DNA from: an uncultured delta proteobacterium | GTDB taxonomy: Bacteria; Myxococcota_A; Polyangia; Polyangiales; B10-G4 | Length of the DNA: 64,000 nt | Assembly (NCBI GenBank): GCA_963727445.1 | Contig: CAVSGI010000020.1 | Location: forward strand, 32,001 to 96,000 | Direction of reading: 5' to 3' | Part shown: positions 28,161 to 56,500 of the stretch, in pieces | Layout: the number at the start of each line of letters is the position of its first letter | Position numbering within the stretch: position 1 is the first letter of the stretch | Translations under genes and position numbers: made by a program | Notes under the pieces: generated by a model | Seen by the model: the letters and a program-made list of their open reading frames with translations, nothing else | Databases searched by the model: none | What the model was told of the DNA's origin: nothing

Positions 28161-28307
28161 CCTCGGACCCACGTGGCGAGCATACCAGGGAGATCCGTCG
28201 CGGCGCGGAATTCGAAGGACTGGCGTAGCGCTGACGCGAGCGCATCGCGTAGATCGCGGCGATCGGGGTAACCGTTCAGGCCCCCTGTTGGACGGCGGAC
28301 GGCGATC

Positions 28308-28666
28308 GGGGACGGTCCGAACTCCCGTCACGCGGCGCTCCGAGCCAGATCCTCCGAGGCGCTTGGGGACGGTCCGAACTCCCGTCACGCGGCGCTCCGA
28401 GCCAGATCCTCCGAGAGTCGCCTCGCCACGACCGAGTCCTCTTTGTGGAGCTCTACGTCGCACGCCATCCACGTCACCGATCCACCGAGATGCGGGCGCG
28501 CGTAGCACAGCCGCTCATCGAGCCGGCAGCGCAATGGTTGCGGCTGATCCGAACCGGCGTTCGGGTTTCGCGAATCTGTGAAACGGAGTCGAGCTTGACG
28601 CGAGAGGCATGCGTTACTCGGACCGTCAGACGCGCCCAGACGCCCCCGTTACGGAAGTTCGGACCG
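28308..28666. mobile_element. Non-coding MITE/REP-like element, copy A (left end duplicated)
   Basis: GGGGACGGTCCGAACTCCCGTCACG at 28308 and 28365. Inverted end CGTTACGGAAGTTCGGACCG at 28647-28666. Interior highly similar to 32940-33125. Confidence 0.75.
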
Positions 28667-31924: not shown

Positions 31925-32533
31925 TCAGGTGGTACAGCCAAACGCGACCGTGCCCTCGACGCGGAGCGGGACCCCGTCGACGTCGAAGACGAGCACGTAG
32001 TCCACCATGCGGCCCGCGGCGCAGACGTCGCAGATGGAGGCGGGCGGCGTGCCGGGGACGTTCTCGAGCATTTGGCGGACCACATCGCCGGCGCCGAGGG
32101 TGAACACGGCCGGGTCGAGGGCGATGACGGTCGTCATCATTGCGGCGTCGTCGAAGGTCAAGGTGGCGGACGTAAGTGTCGCGGTGACCTCGGTCGCAGC
32201 TGCGGAGTTGTCGAATTCGAGGAAGAGGTCGATCTGCAGCGGGTCGGTCGGGACGGGAGCGGCGCATTCACCGAAGGCCGTCGCGCCGAACTCCGTGATC
32301 ACGAGGCTCGTCGTGCCGGCGTCCGCGCTGGCGTCGGCGGCGGCGTCGTCCGAGCCATCCGGCGCTGCGCCATCCGGCGCTGCGCCATCTGGCACCGCGC
32401 TGTCGGCGACGGTGGTGTCGGGGCCGCTGTCGCCCGCGCCCGTGTCCATGCTCGCGTCGGTCGCTCCGTCATCGCCGCAGGCGACGAGAAGGACGACGAG
32501 GACGAGGGCCAGGACTGCCAATCGTTGGACCAT
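31925..32533 (-). CDS. Hypothetical lipoprotein
   Basis: Lipobox LVAC, D/S/A/P-rich linker, beta-rich C-terminal domain. Confidence 0.7.
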   Translation of the reverse strand: MVQRLAVLALVLVVLLVACGDDGATDASMDTGAGDSGPDTTVADSAVPDGAAPDGAAPDGSDDAAADASADAGTTSLVITEFGATAFGECAAPVPTDPLQIDLFLEFDNSAAATEVTATLTSATLTFDDAAMMTTVIALDPAVFTLGAGDVVRQMLENVPGTPPASICDVCAAGRMVDYVLVFDVDGVPLRVEGTVAFGCTT

Positions 32534-32567: not shown

Positions 32568-32940
32568 GCGATCGGGGGGGCGATCGGGGACGGTTCGAAC
32601 TTCCGTCACGCGGGGCGATCGGGGACGGTTCGAACTTCCGTCACGCGGCGCTCCGAGCCGGCGATCGGGGACGGTTCCGGGGCGATCGGGGACGGTTCGA
32701 ACTTCCGTCACGCGGCGCTCCGGGGGGGCGATCGGGGACGGTTCGAACTTCCGTCACGCGGCGCGATCGGGGACGGTTCGAACTTCCGTCACGCGGCGCT
32801 CCGAGCGGGCGATCGGGGACGGTTCGAACTTCCGTCACGCGGCGCTCGGGACGATCGGGGACGGTTCGAACTTCCGTCACGCGGCGCTCCGAGCCGGCGA
32901 TCGGGGACGGTTCGAACTTCCGTCACGCGGCGCTCCGAGC
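32568..32940. repeat. Tandem stutter array of the element left end (8 full + 2 partial copies)
   Basis: Core CGATCGGGGACGGTTCGAACTTCCGTCACGCGG starts at 32581, 32616, 32683, 32729, 32764, 32810, 32852 and 32898. Partial copies at ~32568 and 32662. Confidence 0.95.
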
Positions 32941-33174
32941 CAGATCCTCTACGAGTTGCCTCGCCACGACCGAGTCCTCGTGTGGAGCTCTACGTCGCAC
33001 GCCATCCACGTCACCGATCCGCCGAGATGCGGGCGCGCATAGCACAGCCCCTCATCGAGCCGGCAACGCATTGGTTGCGGCTGATCCGAACCGGCATTCG
33101 GGATTCGTGAATCTGTGGAACGGAGTCAAACGCGCCCACCAGACGCGCGCGTTACGGAAGTTCGGACCGTCCCC
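32903..33174. mobile_element. Non-coding MITE/REP-like element, copy B, with 25-bp terminal inverted repeats
   Basis: Left GGGGACGGTTCGAACTTCCGTCACG (32903-32927) matches the reverse complement of right CGTTACGGAAGTTCGGACCGTCCCC (33150-33174) at 23/25. Confidence 0.8.
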
Positions 33175-33491
33175 AGAAGTTGCGCTGTACGCTGCAGCGC
33201 CTCGAGCGTCAGCTGCCGCATCAGCGTGACCATGGCTTCGTTGAAGCGCGCGTGGAAGCTGGAGGGCGCCAGGCGCACCCCAGTGGCTCGAAGGTAGGCT
33301 CGTCGAAGCCCTGTCAGGCTCCGCCGGTCGCCAGCGGAGAAGCCGAGCACCAACCCGTACACCAGCGACACGATATCAACCTTGCGCCGGCGTCGAACGA
33401 CTCCCAGCCGGCGAGACAGCTCCCGGATCCGACGACGCGGCAACACGCTGGTCAGCGCTCGATGAATGTGGCTAGGCTTGCGGCGAGCCAT
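33175..33491 (-). pseudogene. N-terminal fragment of an IS4-family transposase
   Basis: IRELSRRLGVVRRRRK...LVLGF...SLTGLRRAY...LAPSSFHARFN resembles IS4 N-termini. AAGGAGG RBS upstream. No DDE domain; the reading runs into the repeat end at 33174. Confidence 0.7.
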
Positions 33492-33662
33492 CGCTTCCCT
33501 CCTTTGGACTTAGACACCCGTAGGAGATCAGAAGCGGTGGCTCTTTTCGATCACGCAGCGCGCGCAGGGCTCAACCAATTGGAATCGCTTAACCTTCTCG
33601 ACAGTCGCAGCCGCTTATCCGAACACGAATGATCATACCTACTGCGAAACTCGGGCGTCCGG

Positions 33663-33697
33663 TGAAGGGGTTGGCTTCCGTGGAGGCTGGAAACCGG
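33663..33697 (+). repeat. 35-bp motif, copy 2, upstream of the toxin gene
   Basis: Matches 26364-26399 with one substitution and one indel. Overlaps the hairpin GGAAACC-GGGC-GGTTTCC (33689-33706). Confidence 0.8.
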
Positions 33698-33757
33698 GCG
33701 GTTTCCGCTGCACCGGGGTGCTGTCGTCGCATCCAGACCAAGACTATCCTCCGTCGG

Positions 33758-36700
33758 ATGCGAACGAGGCGAACGCTCGTCGTGCTCACCGCGCTGGGCT
33801 TGGTGCTCTTCGGCCCGGCGACTGGATGCAACTGTGGCTCGGATGGGCCGATGGACGCCGCCGGTGAGGGCGGTGTCGGGGACCCGGAGATCTGCGACAA
33901 CGGGATCGACGACGATCTCGACGGCGACGTCGACTGTGAGGACGTCGACTGTGCGGCGGTCCTCGTGGCGGGGAGCGACGAGACGTTGGACGCTCCGTTT
34001 CGCGATCGCGTGCGCTTCCTCTACGAGGGAGGCATGTGCGCGCCGCTCCAGGTGGACGTCACGCCAGGCGCACTCGACGACGATCCGCTTTCCGTCCTGA
34101 CGGGCGTCGTCACCGGCGACGATGGGGAGCCGCTTCCCGGCGTCGAGGTGAGCGTTCTCGGACACCCCGAGTGGGGGCGCGTGCGCTCGCGTGGGGACGG
34201 ACGCTTCGAGATCGCGGTGCTCGGCGGGACCTCGCGGACGCTTCGCCTCACGGCGCCGGATTACCTCGAGAGTCAGCGGAGCGCGGTGGCGCGCCCCGAG
34301 GACTACACCGAGGTCGAAGCCGTCGAGCTCGTCCTCGAGGGGCCGAGCACGACCATCTCCCCGATGGCGGGCGGCGTGGTCCGGAGCGCGCGCGAGAGCG
34401 ACGACAGCGGCGAGCGCGGTGCCACCGCGATCTTCCGGGCCGGGACGAGCGCGTCGATCCGCATGCCGGATGGAAGCACGTCGCCCGCGGGCACGCTGAC
34501 GCTCCGCCCGCGCGAGGTCACCGTCGGTCCGCGCGGCCCGAGCCGGATGAGCGCGACCCTTCCTGCGGCGAGCGCCTACACCTATGCGATCGACTTCGAC
34601 GCCGCCGAGGCGCCGGAGGGCGCGGATGTCGAGTTCGACCAGCCCGTGGCGGTCTACGTCGAGGACTTCCTCGACATGCCGGTGGGCACGCCCGTTCCCG
34701 TGGGAAGCTACGACCGCGCCCTCGGCCACTGGAATGCGGAGGACGACGGCCGCGTGGTCGAGATCGTCTCGATCACCGGGGGCGTCGCCGATCTCGACGT
34801 CGACGGGGACGGCGTGGCGGAGGCCGACAGCGACCTGACGGCGCTCGGCATCGACGTCGAGGAGCGCCGCACCCTCGCCGCGGAGCACGCCGCCGGCGCG
34901 ACGCTCTGGCGCTTCGAAGCGACGCACTTCTCGCTCTGGGACGCGAACTGGCCCTTCGGCTTCCCCGACGACGCGATCGACGTGCTGCTCTCGCTGCTCG
35001 GACTCGACGCGTTCTTCGAGGACACCTGCTCGAACGGCTCCCAGATCCACGTCGAGCGTCAGGTGTTGGGCGAGTCGGTTCCGCTCGTGGGGACGGGCTT
35101 CTCGCTCCACTACACGAGCGATCGCCACATCGGCTACCAGGCGTCGCGCGCGGTTCGCGCGGTGATCACGCCGGACACCATCCCGCCCTCGCTCCGCGAG
35201 GTGCGCGTCGAGCTGGCCCTCGCCGGTCAGACGATTCGCGAGTCGTTCGAGCCGGCGCCGTCGCTGGTCTACGCGCACACCTGGGACGGTCTCGATCGCT
35301 TCGGGCGCCGGTATCGCGGCGCCACGCCCTACGTGCTCCGCGTCGGCTACGTCTACGACGGCGTCTACGCCGCGCCGGGCGAGTCGCGCGACGCGCCTTC
35401 GTTCGGGAGCGGTGGGGATCGCCGGCTCGAAGGAAGCCGCACGCGCGAGGAGGTCGTCGTCTGGCGCGAAGCGCGCGGCTCCGGGTCGCTCGAAGATGCG
35501 CGCACTCAGGGGCTGCTCGGCCTGACCCTCAGCCCGCATCACCGGCTCGAGCGCGTGAGTGAGACGCTTCTCCGCGGCGATGGGCTGACGGTGAGCGGCC
35601 GCGCGATCCCGCGCATGGTGCGGCGGATCGGCGGCGCCGGCGGGACGGCGGCCGCCGATGGCGTCCCCGTCGCGTCCGCGTCTTTCGGCTCGGTCTTCGG
35701 CCTCGCCCGGTCGCCCGATGGGCGCATCTACGTGGGTGACGCCGGCGACAACCGCATCTACCGCATCGAAGACGACGGCACGCTGACGCACGTCGCGGGC
35801 GACGGCACGTATGCGTCGACCGGGGACGGCGGACCGGCGCTCAGCGCGTCGCTCCAGAGCCCCCACCACCTCCTCTTCGGACCCGACGGCAGCCTCTACT
35901 TCACCGAGCCCTACTCGCTCCTCGGAACCGGCAGCGGCGAGACCGGCGGTCGCATCCGCCGCATCGCCCCGGACGGAACGATTCACGGGGTCGCGGGAAC
36001 GGGCGAGTTTCAGCGCTCTTCCGCGCGTGACGGCGTCGACGATGGGCTCCCCGCCGAGCTGGCGAAGCTCGAGGACGTCGGGCCGATCGCGTTCGCTGCC
36101 GACGGCACGCTCTACATGGTGGACGGATCGTCGACGATCCGCTTCGTGACGCCGTCGGGGATCCTCCAGACCGCCAACCGCATGCCGGAGTTCGGCGATC
36201 CCGACGGCACGCCCCTGACCGAGGCGTTCATCGGTGCGATGAGCGCGCTCGTCATCGACGGCGAGGACAACCTCTACCTCGGGACGACCGGCGGCAACGT
36301 GTACCGCGTCGGTCCCGATCGCATCGTGCGCTACGTCGCCGGCGGCGGGAGCGAGCTGGTCATTCCGGGAGGCGTGCCGGCGCGCGACGCCAACATCGGG
36401 CGGGTCGACTCGCTCCTCGCCCACGAGGACGGCCTCTACATGGGCGCGCGCGAGGGACGGCTCCTGCTCCTCGATCACGCGGGGATCGTCAGCCGCGTTG
36501 CCGGCGACGTCGCAGACTTCCCCGCGGGCAACGGCGGCCCGGCGATCGAAGCGACCTTCTTCAAGCTCCTCGCGCTCCTCCCCACCGACGGCGGCATCCT
36601 GGTCACGGACGAGAGCCCGTCGAATCAGCTTCGCGAGATCCGCCGGAGCTTCGGCGCGAGGCGCGCCGGCGAGTGGGTGGTTCCGTCGGGCGACGGCGCG

Positions 36701-39700
36701 CTCCGCTACATCTTCGATTCGACCGGGCATCACGTGCGCACCGAGACCGCCTCGACCGGGGCGCTGGTCCTGGCATTCGATTACGACGCCGAGAACCGCC
36801 TGACGACCATCTCGGACCCCGACGGAAACACGCTCGGTATCGAGCGCACGTCGGGCGCGGTCACGCTCGTCCCGACGGAGGGGCCGTCGACCACGCTCTG
36901 GGACGACGACGGGGACGGGTTCGCCGACCGCATCTCGACCGATGGTGATCCCTACGAGGTCACGCTTTCGCTCGCGGCGGACGGGCTGCTCGAAGGCTTC
37001 GTCGATCGCCTCGGTGTCGCCCACGCGTTCGGCTACGACCCGACGGGCAAGCTCGTGAGCGACGGCGTCGAAGGACGGAACGCGCAGGAGCTCTCGGCCG
37101 ATGGCAGCCAAGTGACCTTGACGACGGGCGCGGGGCGGACGGCGACGTGGGAGACGCGCTCGTTCGGGGCGACGCGGGACCAGACGTACACGGACGAAAG
37201 CGGGATGACCGTCCACCGCACCGTCGATTTCGACGGGACCGTCGTCACCAGCTATCCCGATGGCGCCTCGCTCACGCAGGTGATGCGCCCGGACGTCGTG
37301 CTCGGCGGCGGCGTGATGGTGCCCGCCGAGACGACGCTCGCGACCCCTGGGGGACGCTCGGTCTCGTGGACCATCGACCAGTCGGCGACCGTCACCGACG
37401 AGCGGCTCGAGAGCCGGCAGACGGAGATCACGGTGGCGCCGGGAACATCCCGGCGCGCGACGCTCAGCGAGGAGCTGGTCGTCGCGCCGACCGGCGAGAG
37501 CACGTTCACGGTGACCAGCGCCGAAGGGCGAACCGGGACGATGGAGCGAAACGCCCGCGGCGAGCTGGTGCGGGTGGAGCGGCCGGGTCGGCACCCGGTG
37601 CAGCTCTCCTACGACACGAGCGGGCGGCTCCTCGCGGTCGTTCAGGGCGACGGAACGGTGAGCCGGCGCCTCGACTTCACGCTTCCAGCGCTGCCGAGCG
37701 CCACGTTCGGCGACGTGGGCGTCACCGATTCGCTCGGGCAGAGCGTCACGACTTCGTGGGATGCGCGCGGCCGCGCGATCGAGAGCGCCGACGCGCTCGG
37801 GAGCGTGCTCACGGGATACGACGAGGGCGCGCGCGAGCTCTCGATCACGCCGCCGGGGCGAAACGCGCACACGTTCGGTGCGAACGCCTTCGGTCAGCTC
37901 GCCAGCTATGCGCCGCCAGCGATCGCCGGCGGCGGCGGCGGCCGGAGCTACGAGTTCGACGAGGACGACGCCCCGGTCGCGATGACCGCCGGCGGGACGC
38001 GCGTGGCCTTCGAGGTGGATGACAGCTTCCGGCCGCGCTCGGCGATGCTCGAAGCGGGACGCGGCGGGGAGGTCGACTGGAACGGCGCCGGCGATCCGGC
38101 GGTCTGGCGCTGGCTCCAGCCGCTCGGGACGGTGAGCGTCACGCCGACCTACGACGGTCCGGTGGTGACGAGCGTCGACGTCGCGGGGCCCTACAGCGCA
38201 ACGCTCACGCCCGTCTACGACGACGCCCTCGAGACGACCGGGCTCAGCATCTCGGTCGGCACGCAGATCAGCGCGCTCTCGTTCACGACGGATCTCGATG
38301 GCCTCCTCGAGTCGATCACCGCGGCGCACGGACGCACGCACACCATCACGCTGACGCGCGACCCGGTGAGCGGGGATCTGACGCGCGCACGCGCCGACAG
38401 CACCAGCTCGACGTATGTGTTCGACGGCTTCGGGGCGGTGTCTTCCGCAGCGCACACGTGGACCGGTGGCAGCCTCTCGCGGACCTACACGCCGGACGCC
38501 GTCGGCCGCATCGGGCGCGTGACCGAGGCCGGCTCGTCCGACGACTTCCAATACGACGCGCGCGGAAGGCTCACCCGCGTCTTCCGCGAAGGGTCGCTGC
38601 GCTATTCATACGACTACGACGCCAACGGCAACCGCATGTCGTGGCAGTCGCCGGGGAACACCTGTGACGATCCCGGCGGCACGGGGCGCTGCGTCGACAT
38701 CGACGCGCAGGATCGGCTCTTGCGGTACGGCGCCGCGGGCGCGGGCGCGATCAGCTTCACGTATGACGACGCCGGACAGCGCCGGACGCGAAGCGATGCC
38801 GCGGGCATGACGCAGTATACGTACGACGCCGTCGGCCATCTGGTCTCGGTCACGATGCCGACGGGGAGGCGCATCGAATACGTGACCGGACCCGACGGCG
38901 GACGCGTCGCGCGGCTCGTCGACGGCGTGCGCACCGATGCGTTCCTCTACGGTTCCGGCGGACGCATCCTCGGCCGCGTCGACGGAAGCGGAAATCTGGT
39001 GATCACGTACGTGTATGCCGACACCGACTGGGTGCCGAGTTACGCGCTCCATCGCGACGGACGGCTCTTCCGGGTGGTGACCGACCAGGTGGGCTCGGTT
39101 CGCGCGGTCGTGAATGCCGAGACGGGCGCGGTCGCGCAGCGCTACACGTATTCACCATTCGGTGTGATCGAGAGCGACGTGACGGCCGAGGACATCGTCC
39201 CTCATCGCTTCGCGGGCGGCCTCTACGACCCGGAGACGCACCTGCTGCGTTTCGGCGCGCGCGACTACGACCCGGAGATCGGCCGCTTCACGGCGAAGGA
39301 CCCGATCGGCTTCGGCGGAGGCGACACGAATCTCTACGCCTACGTCGGAAGCGACCCGATCAACGCCGTCGATCCGAGCGGGCTCTTCATCGACACCCTC
39401 GTCGACGCGCTCTCCATCGCCGGCTGCGCCTTCGCGATCCTCCGCGACAACGTCTTCGGCACCTGCGACAACCTGAACGCGAACCTCACCCGCTGCGCCA
39501 TCGCCGCGGCCGCGTTCATCATCCCCTTCGTCGCCTACGGCGCGCTCAAGGCCATGGGGCGGTTTGGCCGCCGCGCGGCACGCTACGCGGACGACATCCC
39601 CTGCGGGAGCGGCGTCTGCCCGTGCTTCGTCGCCGGCACCCTGGTCGCGACCGGCCTCGCCGGCACCTGCGACGCCGACGTCGCCCTCGCGCACGACAAG

Positions 39701-40564
39701 ATCGAGACGCTCGAGGTCGGCGACCGCGTCGTGACCGCGGCGATGCTCGACGAAGACGCGCCCGCGTACGAAACGCGCGTCCGCCCCGACTGGCAGGTCA
39801 TCGATCTCGAGGTCGCGGGCACGGCCGACGACGGAAAGCGCAAAGTCGTCGCCCTCACCGTCCTCCGGCCCCCCGGCTGGCTCGACGCCGAGGACCCGGA
39901 TGGCGACGGCGCCTTCCCCCTGGACCTCCCCGAGCTCCGCCTCCGCGGCCTCGCCCACGTCATCCAGGTCCGCGGCCCGCCCACGCTCGCCGCGGGACCC
40001 GGCCGCGTCGTCCTCTCCACCGTCGTCCACGAAGACGCCGACGTCGTCTCGCTACGCCTCACGCGCGAGGACGACGCCTTCGCCGCGCCGATCGAGATCC
40101 GCGCGACTGCGAACCACCCCTTCTACTCCCTCGCACGCCGAGACTGGGTCTCCGCTGGCGACCTCGCGCTCGGCGAGCCGGTCCAAACCGCGCACGGCGC
40201 GTATGCGCTCAGCGCCCGCGAACCGCTCCCCGGAACGCACCGCGTCTACAACCTCGAAGTCGAGCGCGACCACGAGTACCTCGTCTCGAACGTCGGCGCG
40301 CGGGTGCACAATGCGTATCCGAACGCAAACACGCTCAATCACATCTTCGGACAGGCGCGACACAACCTCGACCAAGTGGTTCAACATTTCGGATCAGAAC
40401 AAGCCGCTTTCGACGCACTTCAGTCCGGCGCTCAGGCTGCAGCTGACGCCGGGCGAATCTCGGACGTTTTCGAAACAGTCATCACAGTTGCCGGTCAGGA
40501 TGTGACGGTTCGCGGCCGGGTTATCGACGGCATGGTACGCATCGGCACGGCCTTCATCCCGTGA
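33758..40564 (+). CDS. Teneurin-like RHS/YD polymorphic toxin lipoprotein with pre-toxin Hint domain
   Basis: Lipobox ATGC; EICDNGIDDDLDGDVDC; TTR/FN-plug-like region; NHL repeats (VAGDG, VAGTG); YD repeats; RHS core FGARDYDPEIGRF..DPIG...DPSG; Hint CFVAGT...VYNLEV...VHN (39623-40312); 83-aa tip. Confidence 0.92.
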   Translation: MRTRRTLVVLTALGLVLFGPATGCNCGSDGPMDAAGEGGVGDPEICDNGIDDDLDGDVDCEDVDCAAVLVAGSDETLDAPFRDRVRFLYEGGMCAPLQVDVTPGALDDDPLSVLTGVVTGDDGEPLPGVEVSVLGHPEWGRVRSRGDGRFEIAVLGGTSRTLRLTAPDYLESQRSAVARPEDYTEVEAVELVLEGPSTTISPMAGGVVRSARESDDSGERGATAIFRAGTSASIRMPDGSTSPAGTLTLRPREVTVGPRGPSRMSATLPAASAYTYAIDFDAAEAPEGADVEFDQPVAVYVEDFLDMPVGTPVPVGSYDRALGHWNAEDDGRVVEIVSITGGVADLDVDGDGVAEADSDLTALGIDVEERRTLAAEHAAGATLWRFEATHFSLWDANWPFGFPDDAIDVLLSLLGLDAFFEDTCSNGSQIHVERQVLGESVPLVGTGFSLHYTSDRHIGYQASRAVRAVITPDTIPPSLREVRVELALAGQTIRESFEPAPSLVYAHTWDGLDRFGRRYRGATPYVLRVGYVYDGVYAAPGESRDAPSFGSGGDRRLEGSRTREEVVVWREARGSGSLEDARTQGLLGLTLSPHHRLERVSETLLRGDGLTVSGRAIPRMVRRIGGAGGTAAADGVPVASASFGSVFGLARSPDGRIYVGDAGDNRIYRIEDDGTLTHVAGDGTYASTGDGGPALSASLQSPHHLLFGPDGSLYFTEPYSLLGTGSGETGGRIRRIAPDGTIHGVAGTGEFQRSSARDGVDDGLPAELAKLEDVGPIAFAADGTLYMVDGSSTIRFVTPSGILQTANRMPEFGDPDGTPLTEAFIGAMSALVIDGEDNLYLGTTGGNVYRVGPDRIVRYVAGGGSELVIPGGVPARDANIGRVDSLLAHEDGLYMGAREGRLLLLDHAGIVSRVAGDVADFPAGNGGPAIEATFFKLLALLPTDGGILVTDESPSNQLREIRRSFGARRAGEWVVPSGDGALRYIFDSTGHHVRTETASTGALVLAFDYDAENRLTTISDPDGNTLGIERTSGAVTLVPTEGPSTTLWDDDGDGFADRISTDGDPYEVTLSLAADGLLEGFVDRLGVAHAFGYDPTGKLVSDGVEGRNAQELSADGSQVTLTTGAGRTATWETRSFGATRDQTYTDESGMTVHRTVDFDGTVVTSYPDGASLTQVMRPDVVLGGGVMVPAETTLATPGGRSVSWTIDQSATVTDERLESRQTEITVAPGTSRRATLSEELVVAPTGESTFTVTSAEGRTGTMERNARGELVRVERPGRHPVQLSYDTSGRLLAVVQGDGTVSRRLDFTLPALPSATFGDVGVTDSLGQSVTTSWDARGRAIESADALGSVLTGYDEGARELSITPPGRNAHTFGANAFGQLASYAPPAIAGGGGGRSYEFDEDDAPVAMTAGGTRVAFEVDDSFRPRSAMLEAGRGGEVDWNGAGDPAVWRWLQPLGTVSVTPTYDGPVVTSVDVAGPYSATLTPVYDDALETTGLSISVGTQISALSFTTDLDGLLESITAAHGRTHTITLTRDPVSGDLTRARADSTSSTYVFDGFGAVSSAAHTWTGGSLSRTYTPDAVGRIGRVTEAGSSDDFQYDARGRLTRVFREGSLRYSYDYDANGNRMSWQSPGNTCDDPGGTGRCVDIDAQDRLLRYGAAGAGAISFTYDDAGQRRTRSDAAGMTQYTYDAVGHLVSVTMPTGRRIEYVTGPDGGRVARLVDGVRTDAFLYGSGGRILGRVDGSGNLVITYVYADTDWVPSYALHRDGRLFRVVTDQVGSVRAVVNAETGAVAQRYTYSPFGVIESDVTAEDIVPHRFAGGLYDPETHLLRFGARDYDPEIGRFTAKDPIGFGGGDTNLYAYVGSDPINAVDPSGLFIDTLVDALSIAGCAFAILRDNVFGTCDNLNANLTRCAIAAAAFIIPFVAYGALKAMGRFGRRAARYADDIPCGSGVCPCFVAGTLVATGLAGTCDADVALAHDKIETLEVGDRVVTAAMLDEDAPAYETRVRPDWQVIDLEVAGTADDGKRKVVALTVLRPPGWLDAEDPDGDGAFPLDLPELRLRGLAHVIQVRGPPTLAAGPGRVVLSTVVHEDADVVSLRLTREDDAFAAPIEIRATANHPFYSLARRDWVSAGDLALGEPVQTAHGAYALSAREPLPGTHRVYNLEVERDHEYLVSNVGARVHNAYPNANTLNHIFGQARHNLDQVVQHFGSEQAAFDALQSGAQAAADAGRISDVFETVITVAGQDVTVRGRVIDGMVRIGTAFIP

Positions 40565-40572
40565 GGTAGTCT

Positions 40573-40965
40573 GTGGAACAGATCAGCCCGCTCGAGCGCT
40601 CCGTTCTCAGTCTCCTGCTCGAAGGAGATCATCCGGCGCTTCCCGCGCTTCGCAAGCAGGTCGCGTCTTGTCAGGTGACCAAGCGCGCGTTTACTGGAGC
40701 GGGGTTCGTGACGGAACTTCACGTGCCGTCAGAAGTCCCGTCCGTCCCTCTGCGAGATGAGTCCATCCGTTTCGGTGACGTCATCGCCGAGGTCATCGGC
40801 TTGGAGGCTGGAGCTGGTTTCGTCCTCTATGTCGACAAAGGTCGTATCACCGCACTCGAAGGCTATACGTTCGGTGAGCCATGGCCGGCGGAAGTCGAAG
40901 TGAACTCGTTTGACTACTCGACGATGCCTCGTGATTTCTCACCGCTCGACGTCGAGAGCTCTTGA
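40573..40965 (+). CDS. Putative cognate immunity protein 1
   Basis: Small ORF 8 bp after the toxin stop with GAGG RBS. Motifs FTGAGF and GFVLYVDKGRITALEGYT..EPWP. Confidence 0.75.
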   Translation: MEQISPLERSVLSLLLEGDHPALPALRKQVASCQVTKRAFTGAGFVTELHVPSEVPSVPLRDESIRFGDVIAEVIGLEAGAGFVLYVDKGRITALEGYTFGEPWPAEVEVNSFDYSTMPRDFSPLDVESS

Positions 40966-41054
40966 GCCGACCGCGAGGCGCGGGTGTTCGCGTGAGTCGG
41001 GGTGATGTTTTAGCGCCAACTACGAGTACCTGCGACGAATGGGGACTGCGACGA

Positions 41055-42192
41055 ATGGGGACGGATCTCGAAAACTCGGTTTCGGCGCCCGCTAGGTTCC
41101 AACCGATGACCTCGACACGAATCGAGCGTCACGAGGTGCCACGCGCACTGCGCGCCTTCGTCGCCGGCACCCTGGTCGCGACGGGCCTCGCCGGCACCTG
41201 CGGCGCCGGCGTCGCGTTGGCGCACGACAAGATCGAGACGCTCGAGGTCGGCGATCGCGTGGTGACCGCGGCGATGCTCGACGAAGACGCGCCCGCGTAC
41301 GAAACGCGCGTCCGGCCCGACTGGCAGGTCATCGATCTCGAGGTCGCGGGCACGGCCCACGACGGAAAGCGCCAGGTCGTCGCCCTCGCCGTCCTCCGAC
41401 CGCCCGATTGGCTCGACGCCGAGGACCCGGACGGCGACGGCGCCTTCCCCTTGGACCTCCCCGAGCTCCGCCTCCGCGGCCTCGCCCACGTCATCCAGGT
41501 CCGCGGCCCACCCACGCTCGCCGCGGGACCCGGCCGCGTCGTCCTCTCCACCGTCGTCCACGAAGACGCCGACGTCGTCTCGCTACGCCTCACGCGCGAG
41601 GACGACGCCTTCGCCGCGCCGATCGAGAATCCGCGCGACGGCGAACCACCCCTTCTACTCCCTCGCGCGCCGCGACTGGGTCTCCGCTGGCGACCTCGCG
41701 CTCGGCGAGCCGGTCCAAACCGCGCACGGCGCGTATGCGCTCAGCGCCCGCGAACCGCTCCCCGGAACGCACCGCGTCTACAACCTCGAAGTCGAGCGCG
41801 ACCACGCGTACCTCGTCTCGAACGTCGGCGCGCGGGTGCACAATGCGTATCCGGGACCTCCGTTTAGCGGTACAGCGCACCAAGCACGTTGGGCGACGGC
41901 CCGACAAGGTTTGGAAGGGCCAGGTCTTCGTGATCACTTCGCCAAGCATGGGGCCGAAGTAGGTGCCGACTCTGCTCGAGCCTACGATCGTAGCGCACGA
42001 CAGACTATTCAAAACGGTAGACGGTTCAGATATCGGGATAGGGCGAGTGGCGAGTGGCGAGTTGGCTATTGGGACGCCGAAACCGGCCTATTCACCGCCA
42101 CGAGTCAGACCAGAGGCCGACCTGCAATCCTGACGCACTTTCCAGAGACATGGGAAAACCTGCGCCGCCTGCCCGGTTTCTCAGCGAGCTGA
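41055..42192 (+). pseudogene. Orphan cassette 1: leader + Hint (no N-terminal Cys, +1 frameshift at ~41628) + alternative toxin tip (41845-42192)
   Basis: Near-identical copy of 39626-40321. GATCGAGAATCC versus GATCGAGATCC in the main gene. After VHNAYP the sequence is unrelated and contains DHFAKHG. Confidence 0.85.
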
Positions 42193-42194
42193 AG

Positions 42195-42665
42195 ATGTCA
42201 ACGCGCAAGCTCATCGAAGAGACGCGCCTTGGACTGGCAACCGAGATCAAACTTCCACATCAGGCTGCCGCCCTCGGCATGAACCTGTACCGTCTGATCT
42301 ATGAGCTCGGGTGCGAGGATGACGCGGTGGTGGCTTCGCTCATATCCGCGTTCAAAACGCGATTGCGCGACATGGGATTCGAGAACCTCGTCTCTCACCA
42401 AATGCGTTATGCGATCCGGCTCGCAGACTCCGACGGGCAGCTCCGCTACGAAGAGCTACACAAGCTCCTCTCCCTTTGTGACGAGACATTCGGGCTGAGG
42501 AAGCTGGGGCTTGCCGAAGAACCGGACGTTCGCGATGTGTTCGAGTCGGCGGTTCGGCGTCGCTTGCGTGTTCAACGAGCCGACGCCGTACTGGTCGCCG
42601 AGGACAGGATCACGAATAGCAACCGCCGCAGGTGGTGGTACCAGGAGCTCGTCGGAGCCAGCTGA
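42195..42665 (+). CDS. Putative immunity protein 2
   Basis: ATG 2 bp after the orphan tip stop. 156-aa helical-looking protein unrelated to immunity 1. Confidence 0.7.
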   Translation: MSTRKLIEETRLGLATEIKLPHQAAALGMNLYRLIYELGCEDDAVVASLISAFKTRLRDMGFENLVSHQMRYAIRLADSDGQLRYEELHKLLSLCDETFGLRKLGLAEEPDVRDVFESAVRRRLRVQRADAVLVAEDRITNSNRRRWWYQELVGAS

Positions 42666-42683
42666 GACGTAGGGGGACGACGA

Positions 42684-43158
42684 ATGGGGACGGATCTCGG
42701 AAACTCGGTTTCGGCGCCCGCTAGGTTCCAACCGATGACCTCGACACGAATCAAGCGACACGAGGTGCCACAAGCGCTGCGCGCCATCGTCGCCGGCACC
42801 CTGGTCGCGACGGGCTTCGCCGGCACCTGCGACGCGGGCGTCGCCCTCGCGCACGACGAGATCGAGGCGCTCGAGGTCGGCAATCGTGCGGTGACAGCGG
42901 CGATGCTCGACGAAGACGCGCCGGTGTACGAGACGCGCGTCCGACCCGATTGGCAGGTCGTCGATCTCGAGGTCGCGGGCACGGGCGAAGACGGAAAGCG
43001 CAAGGTCGTCGCGCTCACCGTCCTCCGGCCGCCCGGCTGGCTCCACGCCGAGGACCCGGACGGCGACGGCGCCTTCCCCCTGGACCTCCCCGAGCTCCGC
43101 CTCCGCGGCCTCGCCCACGTCATCCAGGTCCGCGGCCCGCCCACGCTCGCCGCGGGAC
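42684..43158 (+). pseudogene. Orphan cassette 2: leader + truncated Hint
   Basis: Same leader as 41055 and Hint sequence up to PPTLAAG, then it breaks into the GGGGACGG end. Confidence 0.85.
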
Positions 43159-43166
43159 GGGAAGAA

Positions 43167-43191
43167 GGGGACGGTCCGAATTTCCGTAACG
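43167..43191. repeat. Solitary 25-bp element end
   Basis: GGGGACGGTCCGAATTTCCGTAACG is the reverse complement of 33150-33174 at 24/25. Confidence 0.9.
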
Positions 43192-43239
43192 CCATGCCCC
43201 AGGAGTCGCCAAGAAGCCCCACCGCCGCAAACCCTCAGC

Positions 43240-44007
43240 TCAGGTCTCGGGTGCCGTCCAGATCAGCGTACGGCCGTCGTCGGGCTTGGGTCGATGCACG
43301 CAGTTGCGCCGATCCTCGGAACGACACGTCTCGTTGTCACGAAACCACGCGGGAAGTCCGAACGGCAGATCGGCCGCCGGGATCGGCGCGTAGTCCCCAT
43401 CTCGGAACTCCTCGAGGCTGTAGTTCCACGCGCGCGGCACGCCGTCGGGATCGGGCGTCACCTCCTTGCGGAGCGAGGTGACCGCCGAACGCCATTGCGA
43501 ACGGAGCCGCGCGTGGTCGTGACTCGCGGGATGCAGGATCTTCACATAACGCTGTTGGTCGCGACCCGGCCACAGATCGAGCGCCTGATGGGCGATGCGA
43601 CCGAACGCGACGACCGCCTCGACCTTCGATCCGCGCGCGAGATCGTAGAGCGCGTTGCGCCACGCCATGTGTTCCGGGTCGTTCAGCATCGACCAGGACG
43701 CACCCTGTTGGCTCGGAAAGAGCCCGTAGACGAAGGCGTTCAAACACAGATAGCTACGTGTCAGCCCGAGCTTCTTCAGAAAGGCCTGCACCCGCTGCCC
43801 CGAATCGCCGACCAGGCACCGACCCGCGATCCGCTCCGTCGGCCCCGGATCGGACGCGATGACCAGCACCCGCGCCGACCCGTCGAGCCGCCCCCGATAA
43901 AACACGGGCCCCCAGCTGTACCAGAACCGCTCCGCGTACTTCCCGTAGTCCGGCACCTGCGCGAAGAGCTGCTCGAACGCTGGCGGCGGTCCTGGGTCGT
44001 GGGCCAT
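43240..44007 (-). CDS. Uracil-DNA glycosylase superfamily protein
   Basis: ARVLVIASDPGPTE....LVGDSG, YLCLNA, VVAFG..A, ILHP. Confidence 0.75.
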   Translation of the reverse strand: MAHDPGPPPAFEQLFAQVPDYGKYAERFWYSWGPVFYRGRLDGSARVLVIASDPGPTERIAGRCLVGDSGQRVQAFLKKLGLTRSYLCLNAFVYGLFPSQQGASWSMLNDPEHMAWRNALYDLARGSKVEAVVAFGRIAHQALDLWPGRDQQRYVKILHPASHDHARLRSQWRSAVTSLRKEVTPDPDGVPRAWNYSLEEFRDGDYAPIPAADLPFGLPAWFRDNETCRSEDRRNCVHRPKPDDGRTLIWTAPET

Positions 44008-44360: not shown

Positions 44361-45983
44361 TCAGGGTGCAACGGGGCCGAGCGGCGTGCCGGGCGGGGCC
44401 CAGGCGACGAGGACGTCGGCGTCCGTCGTGAGCCCGAGGACGCGGAGCGACTGCGGCGACAAATCGATGAGGCGACCGGTGCGGGTGTTGGGACCCCAGT
44501 CCACCGGCCGCACGACGATGGTGGCGCCGGTGTTCGGGTTGCGGACCACCAGCTTGGCGCTCCGGAGCCAGGAGACGCCCTGGGGCGCGTAGTTCCAGCG
44601 CATGGCGCAGAAGTAGTAGTCGTCCGGATGGCTCGCGGCTTCGGACGGGGAGGGGTTCATCGGCGAGTTGAGGCTGCGCAGGCGCTCGCCGGTGACGGCG
44701 CCGGTCTCGGTGCTGCTCACGCCCGTGTCGTCGGGACCGCCGAACCAGCTGATGCTGCCGCGCACCCAAGACACGCCGCCGTCGCCGACGACGGTGCCCT
44801 CTGGCTCGGTGGACACACCGAGGGCGCGCTCCAGCGTCGGATTCGCGAGCCCCGCGCGCGGGATGGACATCCCGTCGAGGTCGAGGCCTGCGTAGGGGAA
44901 CGAGGTCGAGGGCGTCGGCGGCGCTTCTGCCGGCATTGGCAGGGGCTCGGAGCCGGCGTCCGAGCCGCGGGGGCCGCAGTCGCTACAGTCGGTGCCGAGG
45001 GCGCACACCGAGTAGAGCGCGCCGGAGCCTCCGTCGTCGCACTCGCCGTCGCCGGCCCAGCGACAGGTGTCTTCGCAGCCGGCCGTGGTGTCACCGGTCG
45101 TGTCGGGCGCAGGTGCAGGCGCCGGGTCGCTGCCGGTACCGCGGCTGCCGCAGTCCATGCAGTCGGTGCCGTACTCGCAGAGCGACCAGTCCGAGTCGGG
45201 CCCACCGTCGTCGCACTCGCCGTCGCCGAAGTAGGGGCAGGTGTTGGTGCAGCCGGCGGTGTCGGTGCTGGTGTCGGTCCCGATGCCAGGGTCGGTCCCG
45301 CTGCTCGTCCCGGTGTCGGTCCCGGCGCTATCGGCGGGCGAGTCCACCGGCGCCGACGAGCCAGAGTCGGCGAACCACGGCGTCGCCATCGCCGCACCGT
45401 CGGTGCTCAGCTCGATGTGGATGTGGTCGTGGTGGGGGTGAGGGCCGCCGTACGCGCAATCCTTGCGGCCGCTGTAGCTGATGTTCCACTTGGTGCGATC
45501 CCAGATGAAGAACTGCACCCCGATCTCGGTCGCGTGATCGATGAGCCAGTTGGCGACGGGATCGCCGAGGTCGTTGTCGGCGTCTCCACCGCTCAGGGGG
45601 ATGAAGAGGTCAATCGCGCGCCCCGTGCCGTGCATCGAGAGCTCGGAGCGATTGGCGGTGTTCGGACGGCAGGCGTAGCCGTCGAAGCGCGTCGCCGCGA
45701 AGTTCGCGACCAGGTAGTTGCCGAGGGTGCTCGCGCCCTCCGAGAAGGTGCCGCTGCAGCTCGCGCCGCCGTTGTAGGGGCCAGCGCCCTCGTAGGTTCC
45801 GCTCTGCGCTTCGCCCGAGGCCCGCGCTTCGTCCGACGGGATGTAGCGCCCGTCGCGGGACAGCGGCGCCGCGTCCGCGTGCTTGTAGGGATCGTCGCCC
45901 TCCACCTCGTGGTCGGCTGGGAGCGCTGCGCAGCCACCGAGGAGCACGATGGATGTCGCGAGAGCGAAGAGGGGTCGAAGCAT
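44361..45983 (-). CDS. Lipoprotein with M15/Hedgehog-type Zn peptidase domain, two Cys-rich repeats and a C-terminal RlpA-like double-psi beta-barrel
   Basis: Lipobox LGGC; SMHGTGRAIDL and HHDHIHIEL; 2x C..TC...GDGECDDGG....S.C..GTDC.DCG.R; VVRPVDWGP...RLIDLS. Confidence 0.75.
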   Translation of the reverse strand: MLRPLFALATSIVLLGGCAALPADHEVEGDDPYKHADAAPLSRDGRYIPSDEARASGEAQSGTYEGAGPYNGGASCSGTFSEGASTLGNYLVANFAATRFDGYACRPNTANRSELSMHGTGRAIDLFIPLSGGDADNDLGDPVANWLIDHATEIGVQFFIWDRTKWNISYSGRKDCAYGGPHPHHDHIHIELSTDGAAMATPWFADSGSSAPVDSPADSAGTDTGTSSGTDPGIGTDTSTDTAGCTNTCPYFGDGECDDGGPDSDWSLCEYGTDCMDCGSRGTGSDPAPAPAPDTTGDTTAGCEDTCRWAGDGECDDGGSGALYSVCALGTDCSDCGPRGSDAGSEPLPMPAEAPPTPSTSFPYAGLDLDGMSIPRAGLANPTLERALGVSTEPEGTVVGDGGVSWVRGSISWFGGPDDTGVSSTETGAVTGERLRSLNSPMNPSPSEAASHPDDYYFCAMRWNYAPQGVSWLRSAKLVVRNPNTGATIVVRPVDWGPNTRTGRLIDLSPQSLRVLGLTTDADVLVAWAPPGTPLGPVAP

Positions 45984-46205
45984 CGAGGGACCTTTCCGGG
46001 GGGGTCTGTCGTTCCCGGCGGGAGTGCCGTGCCTCGTCCCATCGCAAAGCAGATGCCATTTGGGGGCGGCGCCCCTCGATCGCACAACCGCTGGCGATCC
46101 GAGACGCCACCTGTCACCTCGATGTTCGGGGGCCGGGGACCACGTGCCCCGAACGGAGCATTAAGTGTGGTCCGTCAGCGCGTGGTCACGCGCCCCCGGT
46201 GAGCG

Positions 46206-53582: not shown

Positions 53583-56500
53583 ATGAAAGCCCGTCGTTTC
53601 GCCCACTTTGCCTCGTTCTTGATCCTCTCCTCCCTGCTTTTCGCCTGCGGGCGGACGGCGCTCGACGATTTTTCCGACGGCAGCCCTCCCATCGACTCCA
53701 GCGTCGACACCCTCGACGGGGGTCCGGACGCGGACGCCGACGGTGGCACGTGCATGGTGGATGGGGACTGCGACGACGGGCTCGTCTGCAACGGTCTCGA
53801 GACGTGTGTGGGCGGCTCCTGTGTCCCGGGGCCGCCCGTGTTCTGCGACGATGGCGTGGACTGCACGGACGACCGATGCACGGAGGCGAGCGGCGGCTGC
53901 GAGTTCATCCCCGGGATCTGTCCCGACGGGACCATGTGCGATCCCGCCACTGGCTGCATCAGCCGTGACTGCATGACGCCGCGCGACTGCGACGACGGCT
54001 TCGCCTGCAACGGCTTCGAGGACTGCGACGACGGGACTTGCGTGCCGGGCCCGCCTCCTTTCTGCGACGACGGCATCCCGTGCACCCTCGACGAGTGCAG
54101 CGAGGCCGCGGGCGGCTGCGCCAGCCGGCCCGTGGACGCGCGCTGCCGTGACGATTCGTTCTGCAACGGCGCCGAGATCTGCGATCCGATGATCGGCTGC
54201 ATGCCGGGCCGCCCCGTCCTCTGCGACGACGGGATCGACTGCACCGTCGACCTCTGCGACGAGATGAGTCGCAGCTGTTTCTCGATCCCACGCGACGGCG
54301 ACTCGGACGGCTTCGTCGCGGTCGGTTGTGGCGGTCTCGATTGCAACGACAGAAACCCCCTGGTGAATCCGCGTGCGCCGGAGCTCTGCGCGGACGGGCT
54401 CGACAACGATTGCAACGGCCGGCGCGACTGTCTCGAATCCGGTCTGTGCTTCGGACCCGCGCTGCGGCATGTGCGCGCCCCTCGAGCTCTTCTGCGACGA
54501 CGGCCGCGATGACGACTGCGACGGGTTCATCGACTGCTCGGACCCGGACTGCGGGTTCTTCCCGGATTGCATGACCTGCATGCCGGAGGTCTGCACCAAC
54601 GGCGAGGACGACGATTGCGACGGCGCCATCGACTGCGCCGATTCCGATTGCCTCATGGACCCGGCCTGCTTCTTCTGCAGGCCCGAGGTCTGCGACGACC
54701 TCCTCGACAACGACTGCGACATGCTCGCGGACTGCGACGATCCGGATTGCTTCTTCGATCCGCGCTGCGTCATGCCCTGCTTGAGCTTCGAGGTCTCCTG
54801 CGACAACGGCATCGACGACGACTGCGACGGTGCCATCGATTGCGCCGACACCGAGTGCGGGCGCGATCCCTCCTGCTGCGTGCCGGAGCCCGAGATCTGC
54901 AACGACGCGCGCGACAACGACTGCGACGGCCGGACCGATTGCGGCGATCCCAACTGCTTCGCCTCGCCCCTGTGCTGCATGCCCTCGCCGCGAGATCTGC
55001 GACAACCGCGTCGACGACGACTGCGACGGTCGCGTCGACTGCAGCGACACCGACAGCTGCGCGACCGATCCCCTCTGCGTCATCTGTTCCCCGGAGGTCT
55101 GTGACAACGCGCTTCGACGACGATTGCGATGGCCTGCGCGACTGTGCCGACCCCGACTGCTTCCGAGCTCCCGCGTGCGGGATGTGCATCCCGGTGCCGG
55201 AGATGTGCACCGACGGCCTGGATAACGACTGCGACGGCCGCATCGACTGCGCCGACCCCAACTGCTTCGGGACGCCCACCTGCGTGGTCTGCACGCCGGA
55301 GGACTGCGCCGACGGCAGAGACAACGACTGCGACCGGCAAGTCGACTGCGACGATCCGGACTGCGCCCTCGACCCGTTCTGCCGGATCTGCCTCCCCGAG
55401 AACTGCGGAAACGGCATCGACGACGACTGCGACATGCGCGCGGACTGCTCGGACCCGGACTGCGCGATGGATCCGCGCTGCGAGATGTGTTCCCCCGAGG
55501 TGTGCAGCAACGGCGCGGACGACGACTGCGATGGGCAGATCGACTGCCGCGATCCCGATTGCGCCACCAGCCCGGCCTGCGTGCGCGTGCGGTCCGGTGG
55601 AGATCTGCCGCGACGGGCGTGACAACGACTGCGATGGACAGCTCGACTGCGCCGACTCGGACTGCACTGGGCGATCCGCTCTGCGGCGTCTGCCTGCCGT
55701 TCGAGATCTGCACCGACGGCATCGACGACGACTGCAACGGGCTCGCCGATTGCGACGATCCCCTCTGCATCTTCGATCCGACCTGCACCGGGATGTGTGT
55801 CGCCGAGGCGTGCCGCAACGGCCGAGACGACGACTGTGACGGAATCACCGATTGCGCCGATCCCGACTGCGCGATGGACCCGCTCTGCTCCTTCTGCCTG
55901 CCCTTCGAGGTGTGCGCGACGGGCTTCGACGAAGACTGCAACGGCCTGGTCGACTGCGACGACCCCTTCTGCGCCGGCGATCCCTCGTGCATGACCTGTG
56001 ACCCGCTCGAGACGCGCTGCTTCGACGGGCGCGACGACGACTGCGACGGCCGCATCGACTGCGCCGACAGCGACTGTGTCTTCGACCCGTCCTGCTGCAT
56101 GCCGAGCCCGGAGATCTGCGACAACGGCGTCGACGACGACTGTGACTTCCTGGTCGACTGCGCCGACGACGACTTGCGCGATGGAGCCCTTCTGCTGCTT
56201 CCCCTCGCCCGAGAACTGCTTCAACGGCGCTCGACGACGACTGCGATGGGCTCTTCGACTGCGCCGATCCCGACTGCTCGGCGTTCCCCGGGTGCTGCAG
56301 CCCGAGCCCCGAGGTGTGCAGCAACGGCGCGGACGACGACTGCGACGGCGCCGTCGATTGCGACGACATGGACTGCGCGAGCGATCCGGCGTGCATGATG
56401 ATGTGCACTGCCAACGAGCTCGGCATTCCCATGTGCACCGACCGTCTCGACAACGACTGCGACGGCCAGCGCGACTGCGCCGACCCCGACTGCAGCCCAT

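Follow-up and report, generated by a model that had tools for sequence, protein, structure and literature searches.

Organization of the toxin locus and its carrier gene

We analysed a 64,000-nt window (positions 32,001 to 96,000 of contig CAVSGI010000020.1, assembly GCA_963727445.1, from an uncultured delta proteobacterium; all coordinates are those of the window) and identified in it a long gene for a teneurin-like Rhs protein that ends in a Hint domain and a toxin-type C-terminal domain (tip 1). This gene is followed by a predicted immunity gene (imm1), by one orphan cassette composed of a second Hint copy, a different tip (tip 2) and its own small gene (imm2), and by a third, tipless Hint copy. 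The source is a metagenome-type assembly of 9.47 Mb in 27 contigs that is 85.6% complete.

The main gene (33629..40564, plus strand, 2311 aa) was delimited by open reading frame (ORF) calling, Pfam and NCBIfam matches, and alignment to an orthologue. It encodes, in this order, TTR, FN-plug, NHL, YD shell, Rhs core, a hydrophobic linker of ~70 aa, PT-HINT, and tip 1. Pfam models for NHL (PF25021, E 3e-8) and YD shell (PF25023, E 7e-17) score over their cut-offs and FN-plug (PF24329, E 4e-5, 24.1 bits) under its cut-off of 27.8; the teneurin TTR model (PF25020) also matches, and the order of FN-plug, NHL, YD shell, and TTR is as expected. Rhs repeats are present and the Rhs core is recognized by NCBIfam (TIGR03696, E 5e-22). 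With FN-plug, NHL, and YD shell on one chain, the carrier has the domain set of a teneurin-like protein (TLP), which corrects a previous reading of this DNA made from the letters alone (the sequence-only reading), where it was taken as a plain Rhs toxin. No Pfam match to DUF1020, the N-terminal domain of MafB, was found in the main protein. An orthologue at locus L040 is a full-length gene whose product is 50% identical across 2209 aa. The main gene probably starts at ATG 33758, and inspection by eye suggests a lipoprotein-type signal just after this codon. The ORF further contains DPSG, a DPxG-type autoproteolysis motif of the Rhs core, and self-cleavage of the core is predicted from this motif. 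An array of acidic cysteine-rich repeats at 53700-55000 is related to one at the toxin N-terminus.

Hint copies

Hint copy 1 (39623..40312, plus strand, 230 aa), identified by PF07591 and alignment, has Cys1, a TxxH motif, terminal His-Asn, and Ala at position +1, and scores just over the cut-offs of PF07591 (28.3 against 27.7 bits) and TIGR01443 (15.9 against 15.6). T162, H165, H229, and N230 are invariant in all nine aligned Hints, and Cys1 is present in eight. Judged from its sequence, copy 1 carries the features of pre-toxin Hint or A-type BIL domains directly before the tip, and cleavage at the terminal Asn is likely; cleavage, not splicing, is proposed because the +1 residue is Ala.

As had been noticed in the sequence-only reading, the Hint region recurs at two downstream sites, with a likeness well above anything that chance would give. 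Segment 39625-40321 is identical to 41156-41853 in 673 of 698 alignment columns (96.4%), and 39625-39998 is identical to 42785-43158 in 348 of 374 (93.0%); a BLASTN search of the whole assembly gave no further long Hint DNA copies beyond the three. Copy 2 (41156..41853, plus strand), the arm of the orphan cassette, lacks the Cys1 codon, has an extra base at 41628, and reaches HN-AYP. Copy 3 (42785..43158, plus strand) comprises the 5' 374 bp alone, is tipless, and ends in GGGAC, which is common to it and the adjoining REP-like (repetitive extragenic palindromic) element. Identity between copies 1 and 2 passes VHN-AYP and then stops, at 40321 and 41853, respectively; the tips are unrelated and single-copy, each with its own ORF behind it (40573-40965 and 42195-42665). 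The first Cys is absent from both orphan Hints, which read RAFVAGT and RAIVAGT as opposed to PCFVAGT in the main gene.

Hint plus three codons is the sole DNA common to the main gene and the orphans and no Rhs core is repeated, so the proposal that Hint, not the core, is the homology arm holds for this locus. What had been described as an array of tip/immunity cassettes contains one complete orphan cassette; copy 3 is an arm with neither tip nor immunity gene and, having nothing to donate, drops out as a donor. The suggestion that a crossover anywhere in Hint gives a new tip was too wide, as an in-frame product would be obtained from the assembled sequence via the last 225 bp only, within which the longest perfect run between copies 1 and 2 is 133 bp.

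Toxin tips and immunity genes

Tip 1 (40313..40564, plus strand, 83 aa) and tip 2 (41845..42192, plus strand, 115 aa) are small alpha+beta C-terminal domains with conserved His (H10 and H17 are invariant in tip 1, and H31, H35, and H98 in tip 2), and the range of their homologues identifies both as C-terminal toxin-type domains that move among many carriers. Homologues of tip 1 terminate three unrelated longer proteins (52-67% identity), two of which are Rhs proteins. For tip 2, 155 relatives were found at E<=0.001; 45 carriers were scanned for domains among 150 listed relatives, and seven had an eCIS (extracellular contractile injection system) core domain, six PT-HINT, six the RHS model, and one WXG100, with some overlap. 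One of the proteins with a tip-2 homologue (P0080) is itself a distant full-length teneurin-like protein with Hint, in which a tip 65% identical to tip 2 stands directly behind HN. A tblastn search of plasmids with both tips gave no match.

The Atlas cluster nearest to tip 1 is Ntox35 (cosine 0.93), which is given as a predicted BECR fold (PMC3482391) and as an RNase (10.1101/2025.07.24.666436). Weak matches to the Ntox35 model were obtained for four of eight aligned tip-1 homologues (best E 0.003), and the three structures nearest to the tip 1 model (pLDDT 86.5) are CdiA-CT toxins; a BECR-like RNase fold is predicted. A PDB sequence search with the tip-1 profile gave no significant match. The model of tip 2 (pLDDT 91.8) is best matched by CdiA-CT 8ey4 (Z 8.4, root-mean-square deviation (rmsd) 2.8, 82 residues aligned) and also matches colicin D (Z 7.4 and 7.0), in line with a predicted colicin D/CdiA-CT-like (BECR) RNase fold; none of the Pfam toxin models matched tip 2. 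Both tips are therefore likely antibacterial RNases.

The gene behind tip 1 (40573..40965, plus strand, 130 aa) encodes the predicted cognate immunity protein imm1, as suggested by its homologues (n = 54) and its linkage to tip 1. The imm1 profile matches 10 of 400 other genomes at 11 loci, and in five of these a tip-1 homologue ends directly upstream, with no Hint near these five. Because of this recurrent placement, tip 1 and imm1 are likely a cognate pair that moves between carriers. The gene behind tip 2 (42195..42665, plus strand, 156 aa) encodes imm2, a putative immunity protein named mostly for its position. Neither protein matches a Pfam or NCBIfam family, and a PDB sequence search with the imm1 profile gave no significant match. 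The G+C content of tips and immunity genes is 59-60%, compared with 71-73% for core and Hint, as for incoming modules.

Leaders and REP-like repeats

Copies 2 and 3 are directly preceded by a common stretch of 107-131 bp (90-94% identical), here termed leader, which is absent from the main gene and the rest of the assembly. Leader 2 (41030..41155, plus strand) has an in-frame ATG at 41055 and a REP-like GGGGACGG element at 41057-41088; leader 3 (42662..42784, plus strand) is the second copy of this REP-containing sequence, with an ATG at 42684. Both open with a GGGGAC-N7-GGGGACGG element. The leader's own repeat variant occurs twice in the source assembly, and the commonest form of the repeat in the genome, a 20-mer, has 144 copies. 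In genome G060, 32 nt of the leader start match three intergenic near-copies, two of them inverted 160 bp apart. Another REP-like element forms the right end of the array (43154..43195, plus strand) and is one of 29 copies of its sister subfamily in the assembly; copy 3 is broken at the GGGAC shared with this element. The final leader bases resemble those before the main Hint. Most simply, the junction between leader and Hint would have formed a single time and have been copied along with the unit afterwards, in which case loss of Cys1 reflects a breakpoint, not design.

Two other roles for the leader were considered and rejected. Against a conserved coding N-terminus stand the codon changes between the leaders (three non-synonymous and two synonymous, with no sign of constraint), the failure to find the whole leader in 60 relatives, and the intergenic repeat match. 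A structured RNA or DNA element was dismissed on account of folding that is not unusual (z 0.31). Leader 2 opens with a 16-bp tandem duplication (41034-41065) that is not present in leader 3.

REPs are handled by REP-associated tyrosine transposases (RAYTs), and a Y1 transposase gene (PF01797) was found elsewhere in the genome (L124, G000:C9:565690-568929) amid four plus-strand and three minus-strand repeats of the 144-copy family; the layout is that of a RAYT and its REPs, here headed by GGGG. Clusters of GGGGACGG-headed repeats at 28296-28590 and 32574-33175 account for 11 members of one subfamily, which has 29 copies in the genome. Direct repeats bound the segment of 28.3-33.1 kb, as 28444-28590 is found again at 32981-33127 (94%). 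The toxin locus is flanked by related repeats in opposite orientations at 33174 (minus strand) and 43167 (plus strand), each abutted by a broken gene. The broken ORF at 33126-33491 resembles the remnant of an IS4-type transposase but has no Pfam match. Directly to the right of the array lies a gene of the uracil-DNA glycosylase superfamily (43240-44007, minus strand, PF03167). A gene at 44361-46085 (minus strand) encodes a secreted protein that has cysteine-rich repeats and whose end resembles a lytic transglycosylase weakly, below the cut-off.

The constant/variable border in other populations and genomes

Parts of the region were found in three public metagenome runs (X1, X2, X3), and no RNA data set was listed for it; what follows on their contigs refers to the matches listed. 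Three contigs, two from X2 and one from X3, follow the Hint end (1, 4, and 13 differences) and depart into other sequence at exactly 40321. By alignment, related populations thus have other tips after this Hint end, with main and orphan position indistinguishable. One X3 contig bridges the tip 2/imm2 junction with six differences in 235 nt.

The same border is seen in related genomes. A homologue in genome G001 of the same genus (L019) has a 68% identical Hint, HN-TYP, and then an unrelated tip; it is a 5'-truncated frame of 708 codons, and the N-terminal part of the main gene was not found in G001 (86% complete) with the query used. The L019 toxin frame begins just behind a helicase-like gene, without its N-terminal part, and several small ORFs lie behind the Hint-tip frame (L019:1124-3103, G001:C521, minus strand), among them an apparent further tip remnant and its own downstream gene. 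In the L040 orthologue, HN-TYA is followed by a different His-containing tip and then by a CPCC-family gene.

We surveyed 46 loci, 39 of them with a Hint match and many cut by contig ends, and found a DNA repeat overlapping Hint in five, three of which have two different tips. These three are L020, with a repeat of core plus Hint (1007 bp, 95%); L024 (G001:C139:630-3600), from the same genus, where Rhs-Hint-tip is followed by an orphan with a partial Hint arm (297 bp, 90%) and identity passes HN-NPICPP before the tips differ; and L047. Hint arms recur among loci by this sequence comparison and are not the rule. An arm that begins at Hint codon 2 was rejected as a conserved rule, as the other five Hint-overlapping repeats start in the Rhs core or inside Hint. 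Hint-based scans of the collection returned 13 and 20 loci, for the most part with short matches to distant sequences, and no close strain with the assembled array was found in them.

Probable tip replacement by recombination in Hint DNA

We consider it probable that the locus represents a teneurin-like Rhs-Hint-RNase-tip gene with an orphan cassette and a tipless remnant, both left by successive tip replacements through recombination in Hint DNA. From what is known of these protein families, the main protein would be exported as a lipoprotein, its Rhs core would sever the linker-Hint-tip cargo, and Hint would free the tip at its terminal Asn (for this step, compare PMC3113570 and PMC4524018). 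The freed tip is predicted to act as an RNase against neighbouring bacteria and to be neutralised by the product of the next gene. An incoming or duplicated Hint-tip-immunity-leader-Hint unit may recombine into the resident Hint and install a new tip, and each replacement would displace the old tip, its immunity gene, and the leader-Hint arm downstream, a C-terminal displacement as in PMC8125069. This would account for the finding that both orphans open with one common leader, joined to Hint at an identical base. Simple deletion of the DNA from copy 1 to copy 2 would cost the locus imm1, a loss that Salmonella rhs escapes by duplicating first (PMC3967940). The orphans would chiefly retain the old immunity and decay, the outermost furthest, and re-installation of tip 2 may still be possible through the in-frame end of the arm.

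The codon changes among the Hint copies suit this course of events. Between copies 1 and 2, 14 changed codons are synonymous and 7 non-synonymous, whereas random change would make 26% of them synonymous (P 1e-4); between copies 1 and 3 there are 12 of each. Private changes have synonymous to non-synonymous ratios of 3:1 in copy 1, 5:3 in copy 2, and 7:8 in copy 3, with five codons unassigned. Although counts are small, this pattern would fit once functional alleles that decayed after displacement, the outer one for longest.

Several observations weigh against tip replacement as set out here. The direction that distinguishes displacement from a living reservoir is read tentatively from the trend in these small counts. 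A tip-1 homologue is missing upstream of imm1 at six of its 11 loci (one of the six is at a contig edge), imm2 has one homologue (44% identity), and at the sole other tip-2 locus, found among 400 genomes, the downstream gene is unrelated. Tip 1 scores 12.1 bits (E 0.33) with the Ntox35 model (PF15534), under the gathering score of 23.6, and is therefore called no more than Ntox35-like. Its best structural match, 6cp9, is weak (Z 5.8, rmsd 2.8, 77 residues aligned); the top structural ranks for both tips are all CDI (contact-dependent inhibition) or colicin toxins at middling Z, and Foldseek against PDB gives no match at E<=0.001 for either tip. In L040, the orphans (L040:9585-11485) repeat the end of the Rhs core (508 bp, 96%; 107 bp, 97%), not Hint, and a Hint arm is thus not fixed in the family. 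Lastly, tip 2 on the full-length gene was not seen in the listed contigs, all of which are shorter than the arm.

This last absence also bears on the version put forward in the sequence-only reading, which overlaps with tip replacement and differs in how alive the cassette is. Spelled out for the assembled DNA, it makes the array a standing reservoir whose copy-2 arm is unbroken for ~700 bp; the additional base at 41628 would be an artefact of assembly, and part of the population would actively join tip 2 to the main gene again, by duplication and then crossover. We regard this as a serious possibility that falls somewhat short of an even chance. In the assembled sequence the extra base leaves the Hint of copy 2 and tip 2 in different frames, and true decay and assembly error are nearly even as its explanation. 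An error is suggested by an X1 contig (173 nt, depth 3.7) that reads like copy 2 across 41530-41703 yet lacks this base, but the contig is single and shallow and possibly derives from the main gene of another strain. The assembly is also rich in breaks that resemble frameshifts: they affect 523 of its 11,201 coding segments, about 1 in 21, compared with 3 of 237 in 20 high-GC loci from other genomes, though these loci make a small control and training of the codon model used the source genome itself. Copies 1 and 2 differ less in the half nearer the tip (6 differences against 19, P 0.015), as after recent exchange, and re-fusion via a 522-bp arm of 95% identity has a precedent in Salmonella rhs (PMC3967940). 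Against a living cassette stand the seven amino-acid changes of copy 2 and the clearly dead copy 3. Five further frameshift-like breaks were observed within the window.

It is unlikely that the orphan functions as a stand-alone gene, in which translation from the leader ATG would yield a Hint without Cys1 that cleaves at Asn and frees tip 2, forming a toxin-antitoxin (TA) pair with imm2. Both leaders offer an in-frame ATG, BIL cassettes of Neisseria have start codons and are termed potentially translated (PMC4287609), and orphans of Salmonella rhs act as type II TA modules via internal promoters (PMC7043789). However, the ATG overlaps the REP-like repeat, which is intergenic in another genome, the leader codons and the missing leader in relatives speak against a coding sequence as described above, and the extra base disrupts the frame as assembled. 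No sigma-70-like promoter was detected in 40500-43400, a weak test.

A rather improbable alternative is that the array reflects REP/RAYT traffic, with GGGGAC-type repeats cut and joined by a RAYT and Hint homology as a by-product. The elements that open both leaders, the breakpoint of copy 3, the related repeats on both sides of the locus, and the Y1 transposase with its seven sister repeats in the same genome would all be in accordance with it. However, the border that varies between populations lies behind Hint, far from any REP, and REPs are abundant and land intergenically anyway. There is likewise only a slim chance that the mobile unit is Hint-tip-immunity-REP leader with ends made or trimmed by a domesticated RAYT, in which case tip shuffling would be assisted and would not depend on chance illegitimate joins. 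A role of RAYT at this locus is speculation; the REP-bounded cassette ends are its one unexplained feature.

A mis-joined collapse of strain variants is very improbable. It would suit an assembly of metagenome type that is incomplete and rich in frameshift-like breaks, and none of the listed contigs reaches across the array. Against it, 24-31 substitutions with synonymous bias separate the copies, the junctions are distinct, the main gene has no leader, each of the three other runs has contigs over tip 2 and imm2, and similar layouts occur in other genomes.

Comparison with known systems

If tip replacement is correct, cassette-based tip swapping extends to teneurin-like toxins, and the locus adds two unnamed families of RNase-like tips and one linked tip/immunity pair (tip 1/imm1). 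A specialist would see a tidy example and no surprise; the REP-bounded ends alone could make more of the locus, since a RAYT-assisted route, if true, would mean that RAYTs have a definite part in conflict between bacteria.

The carrier resembles the TLPs of PMC13018210 in its FN-plug, NHL, YD shell, Rhs core, variable C-terminal toxin, and immunity gene directly downstream. These proteins are described there as encapsulating a variable toxic C-terminus, with mention of HINT-type C-termini, lipoprotein signals, and enrichment in Myxococcota. Orphan TLP arrays are not discussed in the main text of that paper, which has no use of 'orphan' or 'recombination', and we found no orphan arrays of teneurin-like proteins in the literature searched, with supplements and subscription papers outside it. 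The nearest Atlas clusters or solved folds to the tips are Ntox35, colicin D, and BECR-fold CdiA-CT RNases.

Orphan rhs-CT/rhsI modules (PMC3967940, PMC8125069) are likewise tip-immunity pairs downstream of the main gene, with a ~95% identical arm of several hundred bp, and re-fusion of such an orphan was shown in Salmonella rhs (PMC3967940). In these accounts the arm is the end of the Rhs core, whereas no core DNA is repeated here.

The closest likeness is to class 1 maf of Neisseria, where the full-length toxin has Hint between its constant part and the tip, downstream cassettes share Hint as their sole 5' region, each with a tip and its own immunity gene, and recombinational replacement was proposed from genome comparison. 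The 5' region of mafB-CT cassettes is described as an A-type BIL potentially involved in MafB variation, and the cassette BILs lack the first seven residues (PMC4287609), as the cassettes here lack Cys1. Shared sequence, at times an intact Hint, possibly serves rearrangement, and cases of swapped tips are given (PMC4524018). In contrast to a MafB with DUF1020, the carrier here is a teneurin-like Rhs protein of 2.3 kaa, its Hint is of the 230-aa inserted type, its cassettes open with a REP-containing leader, and the one complete cassette is frameshifted as assembled. By analogy, the locus would work like class 1 maf cassettes without being a MafB. A shared Hint arm has been published before, for Neisseria, and what is new here is the carrier; the layout is probably ordinary toxin-tip swapping as described there, on a teneurin-like protein.

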